Of a stretch of 8,128 bases of DNA, positions 311 to 7,298 are shown one piece after another. Position 1 is the stretch's first letter; every line of letters starts with the position of its first letter. This DNA is from a virus (taxonomy: Duplodnaviria; Heunggongvirae; Uroviricota; Caudoviricetes). Under the pieces are notes generated by a model. The model was not told where the DNA came from. It did not search any database and was given only the letters and a program-made list of their open reading frames with translations. A program made the position numbers and the translations under genes. The stretch is taken from the IMG/VR virus record IMGVR_UViG_2671180608_000010. The stretch is one strand, 5' to 3'.

Positions 311-646
311 ATGAAGTGGATTGTGATTGATACAGTTATCCAGCCATCATGCGGAATATCTTTTTCAGTCATATGGAGTAAAATAAAATTAATAATCTGG
401 TATCAATCGGATGCTTTCTTACCTCCTGAAAGTATATTTACACTGACTCACACAGGCATCATGCTCAATAACAAAGTGCTACCTGTAACCATTTACAACG
501 TAGTACCATTCAATAAAACATTCTGGAATTCAATCAAAAATAGCCAGGAATGCCCTACAAATACAGATAACGTATTGAATGAATGCTTTAATAACCGTTG
601 CACTCTGCAAATATGTCCTTATGGACTAAAACAACAAAGTCCATAA
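311..646 (+). CDS. Hypothetical 111-aa protein in an AT-rich moron-like block; C-terminal half has 5 Cys; no recognisable family
   Basis: Uninterrupted 336-nt ORF in AT-rich DNA with a good RBS. Opposite orientation to the prophage late operon. Recognition by eye only, no homology claimed. Confidence 0.3.
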
Positions 647-670: not shown

Positions 671-702
671 TCAATATAAACAGCCCCTCCGGAGAGGGGC
701 TG
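671..702 (-). terminator. GC-rich hairpin (cagcccctc/cgga/gaggggctg) followed on the minus strand by a U-rich tract; likely intrinsic terminator
   Basis: Perfect 9-bp stem at 681-689/694-702 with 4-nt loop. Minus-strand downstream sequence is UUUAUAUUGAUUUUG. On the plus strand it sits 35 nt after the 311..646 stop but has no U-tract. Confidence 0.4.
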
Positions 703-897
703 GAGAGTGGCGCTATGTGCCATTGCATGGTGCCGGGTGCCTCCCGGTGAATTCAGTACCAGCACCTGAATCCGCGATTATCCCATATACCTACTCGCTG
801 ATTGCCCCTCCGCACAGGGGGATTCACCATGCCAGTTTCTTTTAACAAACTCCCCGCAAAACAGACAACTGTCAACCGTCTGAATTGTGAGACATTT

Positions 898-923
898 AAA
901 AAAAAGGCCCGCAAAAGCGAGCC
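898..923 (-). terminator. Intrinsic terminator immediately downstream of the tRNA cluster
   Basis: Minus-strand hairpin GGCUCGC-UUUU-GCGGGCC (906-923) followed by 8 U (plus-strand A-run 898-905). Confidence 0.5.
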
Positions 924-937
924 AGGGAAAATAAGTG

Positions 938-1014
938 TGGCGCGTTGTACTGGATTCGAACCAGTGACCGATTGCTTAGAAGGCAATTGCTCTGTCCGGC
1001 TGAGCTAACAACGC
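938..1014 (-). tRNA. tRNA-Arg, anticodon UCU (reads AGA/AGG), 77 nt with encoded CCA
   Basis: Cloverleaf folded by hand from the reverse complement: acceptor GCGTTGT/ACAACGC, D-stem GCTC/GAGC, anticodon stem ATTGC/GCAAT with loop CTTCTAA, T-arm ACTGG-TTCGAAT-CCAGT, discriminator G, CCA. Confidence 0.85.
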
Positions 1015-1027
1015 ATGATGCAGATAA

Positions 1028-1104
1028 TGGACCGCCATCGGGGACTTGAACCCCGCGCAGCCAGCTTCGAAGGCTGGCGCTCTTTCCTGATGAGCTAATG
1101 GCGG
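1028..1104 (-). tRNA. tRNA-Arg, anticodon UCG (reads CGA), 77 nt with encoded CCA
   Basis: Hand-folded: acceptor CCGCCAT/ATGGCGG (unusual C1-G72), D-stem GCTC/GAGC, anticodon stem CCAGC/GCTGG with loop CTTCGAA, T-arm CGGGG-TTCAAGT-CCCCG, CCA. Confidence 0.8.
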
Positions 1105-1227
1105 TATGTGATGGTGGCCCTTGCTGGATTTGAACCAGCGACCTGGCGATTATGAGTCGCTCGCTCTCACCACTGAGCTAAAGGGCCGGGAGCCGCATAA
1201 TAACGACGCGTAATTAATTCTTCAATA
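1096..1227 (-). repeat. Direct repeat copy 1 (Arg-UCG 5' end, spacer, tRNA-Ile2, about 35 nt of upstream flank); second copy at 2833..2958
   Basis: Read directly: 1096-1193 matches 2833-2930 except one spacer SNP (tatgtga versus tttgtga). Flanks then diverge gradually. Confidence 0.85.
1112..1187 (-). tRNA. ileZ: tRNA with CAU anticodon, closest by memory to E. coli tRNA-Ile2 (ileX/ileZ type, reads AUA) rather than elongator Met
   Basis: Hand-folded: acceptor GGCCCTT/AAGGGCC, D-arm TAGCTCAGTGGTGAGAGC, anticodon loop CTCATAA, T-arm GCTGG-TTCAAAT-CCAGC, CCA. Ile2 versus Met cannot be settled without a classifier. The ileZ symbol is by analogy to the Stx-phage ileZ-argN-argO cluster. Confidence 0.8.
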
Positions 1228-2103
1228 TCATCCGTTCTGGCTGACTAAATCCTGTACTTCCCGAACCGTCTGCTCAAAACGTTCAGTCTCCAGCTCAACG
1301 CCAATTGCACGACGCCCGAGCGCCAGTGCCGCTTTCACTGTCGAACCCAACCCCATGAAAAAATCTGCAATCAGGTCACCCGGACGACTGCTAGCGCTGA
1401 TTATCTGCTGCAGCATTTCTGCCGGTTTTTCGCACGGATGTTTCCCGGGATAGAACTGCACCGGTTTATGCGTCCACACATCGGTATACGGCACCTGCAC
1501 CGTCACGCCAAAATACCGCCGCAGATGTTTATATTCACTCAGCAGCTCCGCATACTGCCGGTTCAGTGAGGTATACGTATCCACCAGCTGGTGGTGGAGC
1601 TTTTCCAGTTCACCACGCCGATGCTTCTCTTCTGCCACCCGGGCAAACAGCGCCTGTAATTTCAGATAATCGCTTTCATTCGGCAACTGCCACTGACCGG
1701 CACTGAACCAGTGCGACACCATGTTTTTCTTTCCTGTGGCATCTGCAATCTGTTTTGCCGTTATCCCCAGGGCAGCTCGCGCATCACGAAAGTAAGAAAT
1801 CAGCGGGGCCATCACATGCTGTTTCAGTGCACTGCCCTTCGCCGCATACCCGGCATCTTTCGGACGATACGGCCCCTGATAATGTTCCGCGAACAGAATG
1901 CGCTCTGTGGCGGGGAAATACGCCCGCAGGCTTTCCTTGTTGCATCCGTTCCAGCGTCCGGACGGCTTCGCCCAGATAATATGGTTCAGCACACTGAAGC
2001 GTTCACGCATCATGATTTCGATATCAGATGCCAGGCGATGACCACAGAACAGGTAAAGACTTCCGGCAGGTTTCAGCACCCGCCAGAACTGCGCCAGACA
2101 CTG
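1228..2103 (-). CDS. DNA methyltransferase, N6-adenine/N4-cytosine beta class (C-terminal AdoMet motif DFFMGLGST); visible 292-codon 3' portion, 5' end is N-masked
   Basis: Minus ORF ends with TGA at 1228. The motif-I-like FxGxGST near the C-terminus with an upstream target-recognition region matches beta-class architecture, so motif IV (DPPY/F) is expected inside the masked 2104-2613 run. The 1228..2655 track ORF is an artefact of reading through Ns. Confidence 0.8.
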   Translation of the reverse strand, partial: QCLAQFWRVLKPAGSLYLFCGHRLASDIEIMMRERFSVLNHIIWAKPSGRWNGCNKESLRAYFPATERILFAEHYQGPYRPKDAGYAAKGSALKQHVMAPLISYFRDARAALGITAKQIADATGKKNMVSHWFSAGQWQLPNESDYLKLQALFARVAEEKHRRGELEKLHHQLVDTYTSLNRQYAELLSEYKHLRRYFGVTVQVPYTDVWTHKPVQFYPGKHPCEKPAEMLQQIISASSRPGDLIADFFMGLGSTVKAALALGRRAIGVELETERFEQTVREVQDLVSQNG

Positions 2104-2832
2104 NNNNNNNNNNNNNNNNNNNNNNNNNNNNNNNNNNNNNNNNNNNNNNNNNNNNNNNNNNNNNNNNNNNNNNNNNNNNNNNNNNNNNNNNNNNNNNNNN
2201 NNNNNNNNNNNNNNNNNNNNNNNNNNNNNNNNNNNNNNNNNNNNNNNNNNNNNNNNNNNNNNNNNNNNNNNNNNNNNNNNNNNNNNNNNNNNNNNNNNNN
2301 NNNNNNNNNNNNNNNNNNNNNNNNNNNNNNNNNNNNNNNNNNNNNNNNNNNNNNNNNNNNNNNNNNNNNNNNNNNNNNNNNNNNNNNNNNNNNNNNNNNN
2401 NNNNNNNNNNNNNNNNNNNNNNNNNNNNNNNNNNNNNNNNNNNNNNNNNNNNNNNNNNNNNNNNNNNNNNNNNNNNNNNNNNNNNNNNNNNNNNNNNNNN
2501 NNNNNNNNNNNNNNNNNNNNNNNNNNNNNNNNNNNNNNNNNNNNNNNNNNNNNNNNNNNNNNNNNNNNNNNNNNNNNNNNNNNNNNNNNNNNNNNNNNNN
2601 NNNNNNNNNNNNNTTTAGCATGTCTTTTCCTTTTCCGGTTAACGTGACACACCAATAACTCTTGTCGAAAAAGCCAGCAAGCTGAAANNNNNNNNNNNNN
2701 NNNNNNNNNNNNNNNNNNNNNNNNNNNNNNNNNNNNNNNNNNNNNNNNNNNNNNNNNNNNNNNNNNNNNNNNNNNNNNNNNNNNNNNNNNNNNNNNNNNN
2801 NNNNNNNNNNNNNNNNNNNNNNNNNNNNNNNN

Positions 2833-2958
2833 TAATGGCGGTTTGTGATGGTGGCCCTTGCTGGATTTGAACCAGCGACCTGGCGATTATGAGTCGCTCG
2901 CTCTCACCACTGAGCTAAAGGGCCGGGAGCAGAATAATAACGGTCCGTAATTAATTCC
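2833..2958 (-). repeat. Direct repeat copy 2 of the tRNA-containing segment; the rest of the Arg-UCG tRNA lies in the 2688-2832 N-run
   Basis: taatggcggt at 2833-2842 is the 5' portion of the Arg-UCG tRNA as at 1096-1105. Similarity to copy 1 fades after about 2958. Confidence 0.8.
2849..2924 (-). tRNA. ileZ: Second copy of the CAU-anticodon tRNA (Ile2-like), identical to 1112..1187
   Basis: 76-nt sequence identical to copy 1, read directly. Sits 37 nt downstream of the candidate tR' hairpin. Confidence 0.8.
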
Positions 2959-2960
2959 GC

Positions 2961-2985
2961 AATAAAAAACCCGCTCGGCGGCGGG
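2961..2985 (-). terminator. Candidate tR' intrinsic terminator downstream of Q
   Basis: Minus-strand hairpin CCCGC-CGCCGA-GCGGG (2970-2985) followed by UUUUUUAUU (2961-2969). In lambdoid phages Q-modified RNA polymerase reads through tR'. Confidence 0.6.
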
Positions 2986-3034
2986 TTGTAGAAACTCTTC
3001 TAACGTCAGGCATAAAACGCCCATAGTTATGACG

Positions 3035-3062
3035 AATTTACCACAGATTCCGGAAAAATCAA
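3035..3062 (-). promoter_or_regulatory. Candidate late promoter pR' (TTGATT, 16-nt spacer, TAAATT) just downstream of the Q stop
   Basis: Hexamers read on the minus strand at 3062-3057 and 3040-3035. Position matches lambdoid pR'. The Q-binding (qut) element cannot be defined from sequence alone. Confidence 0.4.
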
Positions 3063-3067
3063 CCTTG

Positions 3068-3889
3068 TTACCTAGTTACCTTTTTTAACTGCCGCTCAGC
3101 CCATGCTTCTTCAATATCAAACCGGGTCACCAGCGCATCATAAAATTTCTTAACTGTTTTTTCCCATGACGCGCGTGTTATCTGGTTTGTCACCTCGCAT
3201 ATAGCATTAAATGCCTCCGTTGATGGTAGTCTTTCATAGCCACGACCACCACAACGCTGGCAGTCTCTGATAACAGGCATACCACGTTTTACCGACTCTT
3301 CACGATGAATGGCGACACCACGCCCACGGCAATCCTTACAGGCGGTGGAAACCTCACCCTTTCCGCCACACTCCGGACAGGCAACTTTTACCACCTCCCT
3401 GACTTTTTTCCATTCTTCCCAGTAAGACGGATACACACCTTTCGTACACTTTGCCCATACCGGCGGCTTACCATCCGGATACTGGACCTTGTTTGTAAAA
3501 ACTACGCTTTCAATAAATTTTTCCCCATAGCAACAAGGGCACTGCTTTTTACTCGCTGCGCTGCGGGCATAATCCTCAAAAGCGTACGAAGCCATAATGC
3601 GCATCACTACCGGTTTTATTTCTGCCGGAAGTTTTCTCAACGCCGCCACACGATCGCACCGACTGAGTGCATAATCTGCCAGTAATTCTGTTGCCCGCGC
3701 CCTGTCATTCATACTGATGCCCATTTTCCCCAGGAACGCAGAAAACCCCATCTCAGCCCGATTCTGTGTCATGCCCTGCGCGGCCATCACATCAGTGATA
3801 CTCAGCGCATCTTTTGACGTTGAGGCCGATGCATCGGTCAGGCAAGGGGATTTTGGGGAGTAGTATTTCGGTAAATCTTCCAGTTTCAT
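3068..3889 (-). CDS. Q: Late-gene antitermination protein Q (lambda Q family, long variant with Cys-rich zinc-binding region)
   Basis: 273-aa ORF. N-terminus (MKLEDLPKYYSPKSP...TDVMAAQGM) and C-terminus (YDALV) align by memory with lambda Q; several CxxC pairs. Start ATG overlaps the upstream rusA-type stop (ATGA). Confidence 0.85.
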   Translation of the reverse strand: MKLEDLPKYYSPKSPCLTDASASTSKDALSITDVMAAQGMTQNRAEMGFSAFLGKMGISMNDRARATELLADYALSRCDRVAALRKLPAEIKPVVMRIMASYAFEDYARSAASKKQCPCCYGEKFIESVVFTNKVQYPDGKPPVWAKCTKGVYPSYWEEWKKVREVVKVACPECGGKGEVSTACKDCRGRGVAIHREESVKRGMPVIRDCQRCGGRGYERLPSTEAFNAICEVTNQITRASWEKTVKKFYDALVTRFDIEEAWAERQLKKVTR

Positions 3890-3918
3890 TTTTTGACCTG
3901 CTCTTCATGCATTATGGG
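3838..3918 (-). repeat. Duplicated rusA-3'/Q-5' junction, copy A (partner at 4864..4947)
   Basis: About 80 nt near-identical between the two positions (ttttggggagtagtatttcggtaaatcttccagtttcattttttgacctgc...). Copy A runs into the N-run at 3919. Confidence 0.8.
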
Positions 3919-4412
3919 NNNNNNNNNNNNNNNNNNNNNNNNNNNNNNNNNNNNNNNNNNNNNNNNNNNNNNNNNNNNNNNNNNNNNNNNNNNNNNNNNN
4001 NNNNNNNNNCCACGCGATCACACNNNNNNNNNNNNNNNNNNNNNNNNNNNNNNNNNNNNNNNNNNNNNNNNNNNNNNNNNNNNNNNNNNNNNNNNNNNNN
4101 NNNNNNNNNNNNNNNNNNNNNNNNNNNNNNNNNNNNNNNNNNNNNNNNNNNNNNNNNNNNNNNNNNNNNNNNNNNNNNNNNNNNNNNNNNNNNNNNNNNN
4201 NNNNNNNNNNNNNNNNNNNNNNNNNNNNNNNNNNNNNNNNNNNNNNNNNNNNNNCTTCCGGACAGGCTTAATTTCAGTCGCTGCTGACGGACAATAAGCG
4301 CCACATCCCGGCGATAACGCTCACCGGCTTTTGATACAAAATATGTGTTGTCACGACGTCGCCAGTAAGTATTCACCGTCGGCGGATAAGGTAAAATAAA
4401 CTCATGGCGCAT
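3886..4412 (-). CDS. Second RusA-like resolvase gene, integrity uncertain (interior masked; N- and C-terminal frames disagree if N-run lengths are true)
   Basis: Visible N-terminus MRHEFILPYPPTVNTYWRRRDNTYFVSKAGERYRRDVALIVRQQRLKLSLSG (4412-4255) is about 90% identical to rusA at 4915..5295. Visible 3' end ...PIMHEEQVKK-TGA at 3886 is in a different frame, and the span is 146 nt longer than rusA copy 1. Confidence 0.45.
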
Positions 4413-4669
4413 CAGCGCAGCACCTCCTGCACCAGTTTTTCAAACTTTCCGACTCTGGTTTCCAGCTCTGCCACACAGTCCACCAGCTCATCTACTGCTT
4501 TCTGTGCGCGATGCTTCGCCTGCATCAGTTCCCGAAGCGCGGGTACCATATCTTTACGGATAGCGTCTTTTGTTATGCCCGTTTTTTCGAGTTGTTCAGC
4601 ATGACGCAGCATTTCCTGCGCGTGTTTACGCAATTGTTCAGGGGTAAAAGTCATTGTCTGGTTGTTCAA
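4412..4669 (-). CDS. Hypothetical 85-aa (80 aa from the ATG at 4654) helical protein, translationally coupled to the downstream RusA-like gene
   Basis: Stop TGA overlaps the rusA-like ATG (TGATG). TTG start at 4669 has GGAG 8 nt upstream. Charged coiled-coil-like composition; no family recognised. Confidence 0.55.
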   Translation of the reverse strand: MNNQTMTFTPEQLRKHAQEMLRHAEQLEKTGITKDAIRKDMVPALRELMQAKHRAQKAVDELVDCVAELETRVGKFEKLVQEVLR

Positions 4670-4863: not shown

Positions 4864-4918
4864 CAGTCAGGCCGGGGGATTTTGGGGAGTAGTATTTCGG
4901 TAAATCTTCCAGTTTCAT
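4864..4918 (-). pseudogene. 5' fragment of a Q gene (first 18 codons MKLEDLPKYYSPKSPGLT), then masked and divergent; recombination scar
   Basis: DNA near-identical to the start of Q at 3889-3838. After the N-run the reading frame gives unrelated sequence and stops at 4706. Confidence 0.6.
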
Positions 4919-4947
4919 TTTTTGACCTGCCCTTCAAGCATTATGGG
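4864..4947 (-). repeat. Duplicated rusA-3'/Q-5' junction, copy B
   Basis: Near-identical to 3838-3918, read directly. Confidence 0.8.
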
Positions 4948-5295
4948 ATAAATCTTCACCCCCAGACGTCCACCAGATACTGGCTGAGCACGAACGATAT
5001 TGATTTCATCAAACTGCTCATCGTCCATTAGCAACCCCGCATGCGTCAGCGCATCCAGCGGCGCTTTCAGAATATTGTCCAGGTCACGGCGGCGCTTATC
5101 CGGTGGTTCTGCAATAATTTTTATTGCCAACCTTCCGGACAGGCTTAATTTCAGCCGCTGCTGGCGAACAATAAGCGCCACTGCCCGGCGATAACGCTCC
5201 CCGGCTTTTGATACAAAATATGTGCTGCCACGACGACGCCAGTAAGTGTTCACCGTCGGCGGGTAAGGTAAAACAAATTCTATGCGCTCGGTCAT
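4915..5295 (-). CDS. rusA: Crossover junction endodeoxyribonuclease RusA (Holliday junction resolvase), 126 aa
   Basis: Aligns by memory with E. coli RusA: LPYPPTVNTYWRRR..., PDKRRRDLDNILKA..DALT.AG...DDEQ, GGRL. Start abuts the DUF968 stop (TAAATG). Confidence 0.9.
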   Translation of the reverse strand: MTERIEFVLPYPPTVNTYWRRRGSTYFVSKAGERYRRAVALIVRQQRLKLSLSGRLAIKIIAEPPDKRRRDLDNILKAPLDALTHAGLLMDDEQFDEINIVRAQPVSGGRLGVKIYPIMLEGQVKK

Positions 5296-6354
5296 TTATG
5301 CTTTCCACTTCAGAACACCCGAATTTCTCGCGTGCATTAAAAAACGAATCAGCAACAACAGCTGACTGCCGTGTTTCTCTTCAAAATCTTTTACTCCGGC
5401 ATGTAGTTCGTTACGGCATTTACGGCATAACGGAATAACAAACAAATCATCAGCCTTTGTTCCCATCCCTCCCAGTCCATGACCAATGATGTGATGCGGA
5501 TCATCTGCCTGATTGCCACACGTCATGCATTTCTGCGTTTTTACCCAGCGCGTGTATACAGGCATCTCTTCCCGTTGTGATTTCTGGCGCTGGAGATACT
5601 GAGCCGGTGACTCCGGATCAACGGCAATGCTGACCACCGTCTTTTCCTGTGGTGGGTTCTGTTGCTGGTGGACGTGAGGCAGTAACGCAATATTTTTTGT
5701 GCGCTGCTTCAGTATGCTGGTGGCTGTCTGCTCTCCCGGTATGATGTCGCTTTCACTGTACACAGAGCGAATTTTTTCCGCACGCAACCCCAGCGAACGA
5801 CGTAATACCGCTTCCGGTAGCGCGTCCGCCACCTGATTGCGGACCGCCCACCAGGATAATTCAGCCAGAGATAATTCACGCTCCTGCGTACCGCTTATTG
5901 CGTGACCGATGACGTCAATCATCCATGCTGACAGGTTTTGATGAGCAAGTTGCTCGAGTGATTCGGATGTCTGGTCACGCAGCTGGTTGTCGCAGTGCCA
6001 GCACAACACCATTGCGCCGGTACCATAACGGTGAATGACGGTTTCGCTGTGATGATAATCGCCGTGTGGCCACTGGCAGGATTTAATATGGCGCAACAGC
6101 CAGTCAGACAATGCACCAGCACCACCAGCAGCACGAATCACCCGTGCGTTACTGAAAAACGGCAGCAATGTTTTGTCTTCCACCAGCGGCTGGCGAGCGG
6201 CAGGAACGACCCCGGACGGCAGATTACGCATGCTTTTTGGTTCCGGCTCCACCAGTATTCTGCCGTTATGGAATGCTGACATTGATTCACGGCCTGGCTT
6301 AACGATAACCAGACCGAGTTCCGGTACCAGAACAGGTCGAAGTAATACCCGCAC
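5296..6354 (-). CDS. DUF968-family prophage protein with C-terminal HNH-like Cys/His motif (YdfU-like), 352 aa from a GTG start
   Basis: C-terminal CMTCGNQADDPHHIIGHGLGGMGTKADDLFVIPLCRKCRNELH matches the DUF968 signature. GGAGG lies 4 nt upstream of the GTG; true start could be the ATG 24 codons in. Confidence 0.8.
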   Translation of the reverse strand: MRVLLRPVLVPELGLVIVKPGRESMSAFHNGRILVEPEPKSMRNLPSGVVPAARQPLVEDKTLLPFFSNARVIRAAGGAGALSDWLLRHIKSCQWPHGDYHHSETVIHRYGTGAMVLCWHCDNQLRDQTSESLEQLAHQNLSAWMIDVIGHAISGTQERELSLAELSWWAVRNQVADALPEAVLRRSLGLRAEKIRSVYSESDIIPGEQTATSILKQRTKNIALLPHVHQQQNPPQEKTVVSIAVDPESPAQYLQRQKSQREEMPVYTRWVKTQKCMTCGNQADDPHHIIGHGLGGMGTKADDLFVIPLCRKCRNELHAGVKDFEEKHGSQLLLLIRFLMHARNSGVLKWKA

Positions 6355-6931: not shown

Positions 6932-7087
6932 TTACTCCTCAGGTTCGTAAGCTGTGAAGACAGCGACCTCCGTCTGGCCGGTTCGAATTCGTACCTCGCA
7001 GAGGTCTTTCCTCGTTACCAGTGCCGTCACAATGACGGTTAAACAGATGACGATCAGGGCGATTAACATCGCCTTTTGCTGCTTCAT
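6932..7087 (-). CDS. hokD: Hok/Gef-family membrane toxin, 51 aa (HokD/RelF-like)
   Basis: MKQQKAMLIALIVICLTVIVTALVTRKDLCEVRIRTGQTEVAVFTAYEPEE matches the Hok family from memory. AAGGAG 9 nt upstream. The 70-aa track ORF is an in-frame upstream ATG extension. Confidence 0.85.
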   Translation of the reverse strand: MKQQKAMLIALIVICLTVIVTALVTRKDLCEVRIRTGQTEVAVFTAYEPEE

Positions 7088-7298
7088 AGCCTGCTTCTCC
7101 TTGCCTTTCGGCACGTAAGAGGCTAACCTAGATTTGCCGTTCATAGATTGAGCCTCAGATTAATGTTAAGCGTCTTGCCGGACGCGTAATGTTAACTGGG
7201 GCTTTTCTCTATCTGCCTTTTGGTGTTCATGCCTGAGACAGATAGCCTCAAGCACCCGCTGCAATTCTACTTAACTCTCCTTTTCCCGCAAACCGTTT

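Follow-up and report, generated by a model that had tools for sequence, protein, structure and literature searches.

The stretch of 8,128 nucleotides analyzed here (the window) represents the late-control region of a lambdoid prophage, with all relevant genes on the minus strand. It contains a DNA methyltransferase gene with no visible restriction partner. The question is when such an enzyme would be made and what it would methylate. Our main reading, to which we assign a probability of about 0.8, is that the gene encodes an orphan methylase of the M.EcoGII clade, that it belongs to a late-operon cassette from which Q would release its expression, and that the enzyme would methylate phage DNA against restriction, with the present copy possibly impaired. 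The enzyme family, its prophage origin, and its presumed anti-restriction role are already known from published work, and the gene lies in its usual context.

Family and specificity of the methylase

The translated fragment matches Pfam PF01555 (N6_N4_Mtase) with an E-value of 1.2e-31 and 110.8 bits (cut-off 26.7), covering positions 37–219 of the 221-position profile. Its best match in PADLOC is a Type II methyltransferase model (E = 1e-166). Motif I is visible as F-M-G-L-G ("DFFMGLGST") at the C-terminal end, and the TRD is visible as well. Full-length relatives, such as those of E. coli TOE17 and phage Stx2a_1447, have 349–352 residues and start with MLNTVKISS...VTDPPYF. The DPPY motif is positioned near residue 35 in every full-length relative, including a Shigella boydii protein that is 99% identical to the fragment. 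The beta-class order (DPPY first, TRD central, FxGxG last) holds across the family; the window shows the C-terminal part of this arrangement, with DPPY under the mask. Because the gene is collinear with its full-length homologues, only codons 1–61, which include the DPPY motif IV, are masked, and the start codon is expected near position 2286. The original prediction placed the gene at 1228–2103. The frame and the family are correct, but the extent is not, since these coordinates span only the visible C-terminal 291 codons. The assignment as an orphan beta-class methyltransferase is supported by the PF01555 match, the C-terminal motif I, the DPPY of the relatives, and the lack of an endonuclease in the window.

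The fragment is identical to M.EcoGII at 263 of 287–288 aligned residues (91.6%), a value that is probably slightly below the true identity because the reference (EGT69837.1), taken from a supplementary table of PMC11551740 as machine-read text, contains some evident reading errors. The alignment has just two one-residue gaps, both of which look like reading errors in the reference. Apart from these, the HTH target-recognition region and the charged linker align ungapped. The two proteins are of the same length class, and both are prophage-borne and come without an endonuclease. They differ at the C-terminal tail, which reads ...DLVSQNG in the window, as in the copies of Stx2 phages, and ...DLIV in M.EcoGII. 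In addition, the window copy differs from M.EcoGII by Ser313Leu in motif I and Ser197Gly, and its N-terminus is masked. Relatives in the PDB align over the catalytic core only, and we found no solved structure for the family.

M.EcoGI and M.EcoGII, which share 333 of 349 residues, are non-specific N6-adenine DNA/RNA methyltransferases from prophages of E. coli O104:H4 C227-11 (Murray et al. 2018, PMC5778455). M.EcoGII, a beta-class enzyme of 349 aa, methylates adenine in any context in double-stranded and single-stranded DNA, RNA, and hybrids, and the methylase of phage 1720a-02 has been named as very similar to it (PMC5778455). For reconstructed ancestors of the clade, activity on both DNA and RNA with little sequence specificity has been reported (PMC11551740), and the natural homologue EspM has been described as a non-specific adenine methyltransferase (PMC13540299). 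The lack of specificity seems to characterize the clade as a whole rather than one protein. It had been stated that the specificity of the window enzyme cannot be read from the sequence. The 91.6% identity to M.EcoGII, EspM, and the ancestors all point instead to a non-specific enzyme. Our best inference from sequence comparison is that the window gene is a member of the M.EcoGII clade with no specificity beyond the target adenine. An M.EcoGII-type enzyme is sold as a reagent and is widely used in chromatin footprinting.

Position at the head of the late operon

The features of the window are collected in Table 1.

Table 1. Coordinates of the features discussed in the text, in order of transcription
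Feature	Position	Strand	Remarks
DUF968/HNH-like (HNHc_6) gene	6354..5296	minus	upstream of Q
rusA	5295..4915	minus	
Second Q start, truncated	4918..4865	minus	an 11-N mask comes next, then a fragment similar to a helicase gene's 3' end
85-aa ORF	4669..4412	minus	
Second rusA, partly masked	4412..3912	minus	
Q antiterminator gene, 273 aa, intact	3889..3068	minus	PF03589, E = 6e-55
Candidate pR'	3062..3035	minus	-35 TTGATT 3062..3057, 16-nt spacer, extended -10 TGgTAAATT 3043..3035; read by eye
tR'-like intrinsic terminator	2987..2960 (hairpin 2987..2968)	minus	7-bp stem with 5 G-C pairs, T-run; terminator scan
Extra ileZ-like tRNA copy, anticodon CAT	2924..2849	minus	ARAGORN, Rfam tRNA
Small-ORF start	2621..2614	minus	ATG 2621..2619, then Leu; alignment with TOE17; remainder masked
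Masked stretch	2104..2613	minus	by collinearity: rest of the small ORF, terminator-like hairpin, ~149-nt spacer, methylase codons 1–61
M.EcoGII-family beta-class methyltransferase, visible part	2103..1228	minus	291 open codons plus stop, residues ~62–352
tRNA cluster of ileZ-argN-argO type (CAT, TCG, TCT)	1187..938	minus	ARAGORN, Rfam; directly 3' of the methylase
Terminator-like hairpin after the tRNA cluster	923..906	minus	terminator scan; also in TOE17
Further terminator-like hairpin	702..681	minus	terminator scan

The intact Q protein matches phrog_127 ("anti-termination protein Q-like") over residues 1–273. It also matches the Q-lambda chains 7UBM_Q (E = 1.5e-40) and 4MO1. The surrounding prophage is rearranged, with a duplicated rusA, a duplicated 5' end of Q, a helicase fragment, and a 132-nt direct repeat (2833–2964 and 1096–1227, 94% identity) that contains tRNA-Ile and flanks the cassette on both sides. 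Among the top-listed matches, no complete E. coli genome is collinear with this arrangement. An exact 38-mer taken from the methylase gene has no match in the genome contigs searched (genome_contigs). The layout Q-tR'-tRNA-Ile is common on its own (e.g., locus L003). Between tR' and the cassette, the window departs from typical loci by the extra tRNA copy and 145 masked nucleotides.

The candidate pR' is followed by AACTATGGG and has the same sequence in TOE17. We take the promoter to resemble lambda pR' and AACTATGGG to resemble the lambda pR' pause element. In a consensus promoter scan, the candidate falls below the threshold both in the window and in TOE17 (8/12 matches). The tR' hairpin is also present in TOE17 (8778..8759). 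On the minus strand, the terminator scan finds no terminator-like site in the visible sequence from 2968 to 1228. In TOE17, a terminator-like hairpin (8450..8433) is located between the small ORF and the methylase, in the stretch that is masked in the window; in other lineages the stem sequence varies and the hairpin is kept. The claim that no terminator intervenes between tR' and the methylase holds for the visible sequence only, as the homologues carry this hairpin in the stretch that is masked here. In the homologues, the second hairpin is predicted to be an added barrier to expression in the lysogen. Since terminators do not stop Q-modified polymerase, this hairpin is compatible with expression that depends on Q.

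Of 5426 complete E. coli genomes, 2016 contain similar DNA. It also occurs in 292 phage records, most of them from Stx2-converting phages, in which the gene is annotated as "DNA methylase". In these 292 records, Stx2 phages and phiP27 are 87–94% identical to the window at the nucleotide level over the small ORF, the methylase, and the tRNAs. The methylase of these phages likewise lies between Q and the ileZ-argN-argO tRNA genes, a cluster that is also annotated in Stx2 phages, with stx2 beyond; the order in phage 1720a-02 is Q, a hypothetical ORF, the methylase, the tRNA cluster, and stx2A. Unlike Stx2 phages, the window has no stx downstream, with an STnc100 sRNA hit and an IraM-like ORF on the opposite strand in its place, and it has an extra tRNA-Ile copy upstream of the cassette.

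We read the gene order in six homologous annotated loci (L001 of TOE17, L002 of Stx2a_1447, L004, L006, L008, and L010 of 1720a-02). In E. coli, Q is followed by an ORF of 63–65 aa, a spacer of ~148–150 nt, the methylase, and then holin/lysis genes or the tRNA cluster. The same order is found in prophages of Klebsiella michiganensis, Salmonella enterica, and Pantoea agglomerans, with an ORF of 63–64 aa, a spacer of ~148 nt, and holin and lysis genes after the methylase, and in these loci opposite-strand insertions at times separate Q from the cassette. The Q genes of the E. coli, Klebsiella, Salmonella, and Pantoea loci belong to three Pfam families (PF03589, PF06530, and PF06323). The distance from the end of the small ORF to the methylase start is 147–151 nt in most of the 105 distinct upstream regions. 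The window matches this clade layout, as the gene follows Q at the beginning of the late operon, with a small-ORF start upstream of it.

The best available evidence that the methylase is a late gene is its location at the start of the late operon irrespective of the type of Q. The proposal that it lies downstream of pR'/tR' in a Q-controlled late unit is in accordance with the Q gene and the tR' hairpin on the same strand and with the conservation of the position across genera and three Q families. In Stx2 phages, the methylase is followed downstream by stx2, which has the same orientation. The stx genes are reported to be transcribed from pR' under the control of Q (PMC6266700). The methylase is not mentioned in that comparative paper on pR'.

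The expression of the gene may be pictured as follows. In the lysogen, transcription from pR' would stop at tR', and in the homologues again at the second hairpin, so that the enzyme would be off. Upon induction, Q would make RNA polymerase terminator-resistant, and the methylase would be made together with the lysis and structural proteins. Replicating phage DNA would then be broadly adenine-methylated, and progeny DNA would be shielded from m6A-sensitive restriction enzymes of Types I, II, and III. This model combines family identity, gene order, and the lack of an endonuclease, which come from the present analysis, with non-specificity, silence in the lysogen, and harm by constitutive expression, which come from published work on M.EcoGII and its relatives; Q-dependent expression and the anti-restriction benefit are what we infer. 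A proposal already made for M.EcoGII is that induction turns the enzyme on and that it serves to evade restriction by the host (Murray et al. 2018, PMC5778455); the original prediction of late expression and anti-restriction agrees with this proposal. Our literature search found no report of transcription of M.EcoGII-type genes from pR' or of hypermethylated virion DNA.

Small ORF and leader upstream of the methylase

The homologue of the small ORF belongs to phrog_331 and has a conserved length of 63–65 aa. Four orthologues show consistent sub-threshold similarity to winged-helix models (TrmB, DprA_WH, and MarR). In the homologues, the spacer before the methylase is nearly invariant over ~125 nt (90 distinct sequences from several genera), and in Escherichia, Klebsiella, Salmonella, and Pantoea the conservation score of this leader is about that of coding sequence. 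The leader ends at the start codon without an obvious Shine-Dalgarno sequence. An ORF of 33 codons in the leader was rejected as coding; indels shift its frame, and a stop is present in Klebsiella-type sequences. Because reading frames differ between lineages, we regard the leader as non-coding. A search of the leader against Rfam gives nothing at the gathering threshold and only chance-level matches at E<=1. In a covariation test on the 90 distinct leaders, one pair occurs in three Watson-Crick states (UA 38, CG 32, and AU 20), and there are a few G-U-compatible changes. The remaining predicted pairs are invariant, and the structure is putative. Tentatively, and with more doubt than confidence, the winged-helix protein, the terminator, and the ~125-nt leader could be read as an undescribed control cassette with the methylase as its output.

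Alternative readings and the state of this copy

The methylase might be one half of a restriction-modification system, with the endonuclease concealed in masked sequence. The one point in favor is that 655 nucleotides near the gene are masked (the 510-nt N run at 2104–2613 and the 145-nt mask upstream). In TOE17 (8103–8634) and Stx2a_1447, the 510-nt stretch is filled by the small ORF, the ~150-nt spacer, and the 5' end of the methylase. Since the 510-nt mask is collinear with these loci within 13 nt and the other mask is only 145 nt long, the masks hide no restriction gene. Outside the masks, searches with Pfam, PHROG, and PADLOC models find no restriction endonuclease among the other ORFs of the window, and none of these ORFs matches a PADLOC defense model. 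The six annotated homologous loci, from six genomes, have no adjacent endonuclease either, so that the claim of no restriction gene nearby is upheld. Furthermore, a site-specific endonuclease cannot be the cognate partner of a methylase that lacks specificity. A hidden endonuclease is therefore a negligible prospect. As a candidate nuclease partner, the DUF968/HNHc_6 protein (5296–6354) was set aside for its position upstream of Q; DUF968 (YdfU) is presumably also found in lambdoid prophages that lack an M.EcoGII-type methylase. A role in the lysogen, which the original prediction had offered as its second option, would be that of a sequence-specific orphan methyltransferase with an epigenetic function like Dam, CcrM, or YhdJ. 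The window gene resembles YhdJ (M.EcoKII) and CcrM in that all are orphan beta-class enzymes with PF01555 and the same motif order, and there is weak NCBIfam similarity to both. However, the scores are far below the cut-offs: against the YhdJ model NF008572 (cut-off 292), the fragment scores 62.7 bits and a full-length homologue 112.9 bits, and against the CcrM model NF050803 (cut-off 830) they score 46.3 and 72.2 bits, respectively. The gene is the equivalog of neither; YhdJ (ATGCAT) and CcrM (GANTC) are sequence-specific and chromosomal, whereas the window enzyme has 91.6% identity to a non-specific one and has one or two terminators in front of its gene. For M.EcoGI and M.EcoGII, absence of expression in the lysogen has been reported, and their constitutive expression slows growth and harms the cell (PMC5778455). 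An epigenetic role is accordingly very unlikely.

It could also be that RNA (host or phage transcripts or rRNA), and not phage DNA, is the relevant substrate, and that gene expression is reprogrammed late in infection. In vitro, single-stranded RNA and RNA:DNA hybrids are substrates of M.EcoGII (PMC5778455), and activity on RNA differs 12-fold among members of the clade (PMC11551740). Another methyltransferase of a Stx prophage, M.EcoPA8orf6770P with PNB-2 (phiPA8), targets 16S rRNA and has a winged-helix partner encoded upstream; its gene, gp5, has neighbors of its own and is reported to be co-transcribed with gp6 by way of a promoter whose activity is turned on as cells near stationary phase (Gong et al. 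2023, PMC10810198). The window gene is likewise a prophage methyltransferase gene preceded by a small winged-helix-like ORF. However, the 16S rRNA enzyme is of the MT-A70 type with DPPW and occupies another prophage position. Because MT-A70/DPPW is set against PF01555/DPPY, the window gene is not homologous to M.EcoPA8orf6770P, and the phiPA8 pair was rejected as a match for the small ORF and methylase. In addition, the activity of M.EcoGII is higher with DNA than with RNA (PMC5778455), and no in vivo RNA target is known for its family. We consider a primary role on RNA improbable. The most substantial alternative concerns this copy alone, which might be a decaying, non-functional remnant of the M.EcoGII family in a defective, rearranged prophage, probably of a Shigella-type genome. 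Motif I of the window reads G-L-G-S-T; G-S-G is found in 117 of 120 homologues and G-L-G in none of the 120. In accordance, the residue corresponding to Ser313 is serine in 100% of 107 aligned homologues and leucine in the window, making S313L private to this copy. Ser197 is 99% conserved, and the glycine of the window is shared by one homologue of 107. The closest protein (P0002), from Shigella boydii, has a non-canonical N-terminus, MESLPADCLEF..., instead of MLNTVKISSCELINADCLEF. The masked interval falls 13 nt short of its length in TOE17 and Stx2a_1447, a difference that is not a multiple of 3. The truncated second Q start, the second rusA, and the helicase fragment, which lie in tandem, and the lack of a collinear E. 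coli genome noted above also favor decay. Against it, all 291 visible codons are open, dN/dS of the fragment against three homologues is 0.10–0.19, the adjacent Q gene, tR' hairpin, and tRNA cluster are intact, and a leucine between the two glycines still fits F-x-G-x-G. The window allele may be weak or dead; that it is outright inactive, or that the whole locus is such a remnant, we regard as a serious but minority possibility, with odds of somewhat less than one in three.

For the M.EcoGII-clade methylase as a late, anti-restriction enzyme, expression from pR' and hypermethylation of virion DNA are a well-posed question, given the conserved location at the start of the late operon. If the upstream elements do form a control cassette, then the cassette, and not the enzyme, would be the novelty, and it could add to Q antitermination a further control over a toxic, non-specific enzyme. 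The small ORF, the terminator, and the leader may account for the silence of a cell-damaging enzyme in thousands of lysogens.

A small ORF and a conserved spacer before the methylase

The methylase is always preceded by an ORF of 63–65 aa, which belongs to phrog_331. All four of the orthologues tested show similarity to winged-helix domains (TrmB, DprA_WH, and MarR), at sub-threshold level. The small ORF may act as a regulator or as the methylase's partner.

The spacer between the two genes is non-coding. It is present in E. coli TOE17 (L001), phage Stx2a_1447 (L002), the prophage loci of Klebsiella michiganensis (L004), Salmonella enterica (L006), and Pantoea agglomerans (L008), as well as in the 90 distinct viral loci of alignment A4. 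In these homologues, ~125 nt of the ~149-nt spacer is nearly invariant across Escherichia, Klebsiella, Salmonella, and Pantoea. An inverted repeat, GGCTGGTGGGTG...CACCCACCAGCC, lies within the spacer. In alignment A4, one pair of positions covaries through three Watson–Crick states. On the 5' side of the spacer there is a terminator-like hairpin whose stems differ from lineage to lineage. Rfam gives no match for the spacer.

Features of the window and of homologous loci
Feature	Location	Strand	Evidence or remark
IraM (anti-adapter protein) subfamily ORF, 111 aa	window 311-646	+	NCBIfam, 162 bits vs cut-off 121
STnc100 sRNA match	window 672-861	-	Rfam, full-length, 133.6 bits vs gathering score 47
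Spacer, small ORF to methylase	window about 2287-2436; L001 8287-8436		masked in window; seen in homologues only
Small ORF, 63-65 aa	window 2614-2621; L001 8437-8634; L004 4660-4851; L006 4661-4852; L008 4659-4853		window, start only
hok/sok-type toxin-antitoxin module	window 6932-7257	-	Pfam + Rfam
Hok/Gef ORF	window 6932-7144	-	PF01848, E=3e-23
sok antitoxin RNA match	window 7082-7257	-	Rfam, 112 bits
Genes with Cas_Cas1 (273 aa) + AcrVA2-like (301 aa) hits, K. michiganensis prophage	L004 7143-8808	opposite	Pfam
HicA/HicB toxin-antitoxin pair, S. enterica prophage	L006 3863-4501	opposite

Private substitutions in the methylase

The window methylase (1228-2103) carries two private substitutions at near-invariant positions, 197 and 313 in the numbering of the full-length protein. 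S313L alters the G-S-G of motif I, where Leu occurs in 0 of 107 homologues; at position 197 (S197G), Gly occurs in 1 of 107. In P0002 of Shigella boydii, the nearest relative, both residues are Ser.

Surroundings of the late-control region

The IraM-type ORF lies on the strand opposite the methylase, in DNA of ~33% G+C; in Stx2 phages, this slot is occupied by stx2AB instead. The STnc100 match, common to the window and TOE17, follows the tRNA cluster on its 3' side and extends as far as a hairpin (702..681).

The segment 3837-4947 is a chimeric tandem duplication. The 5' end of Q occurs a second time at 4866-4947 (95% identity to 3837-3918) and breaks off after ~18 codons at an 11-N mask. Beyond this mask lie an apparent 3' fragment of a helicase gene, then an ORF of 85 aa, and then another rusA copy (4255-4410, 90% identical to 5132-5287). 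The duplication suggests that two lambdoid late-control modules are fused head to tail.

Insertions and possible gain or loss of the cassette

In L004, the genes with Cas_Cas1 and AcrVA2-like hits are placed between the methylase and the holin, an odd pairing for a prophage late region. In L006, the HicA/HicB pair is placed between Q and the small-ORF/methylase cassette. Therefore, the gap between Q and the cassette tolerates insertions without displacement of the cassette.

In the window, the cassette is flanked on both sides by a 132-nt direct repeat (1096-1227 and 2833-2964, 94% identical), which comprises an ileZ-like tRNA and the tRNA leader. A methylase-free Q-tR'-tRNA-Ile layout is common in E. 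coli (for example, L003). It looks as if the cassette was gained, or could be lost, through recombination between the tRNA copies.
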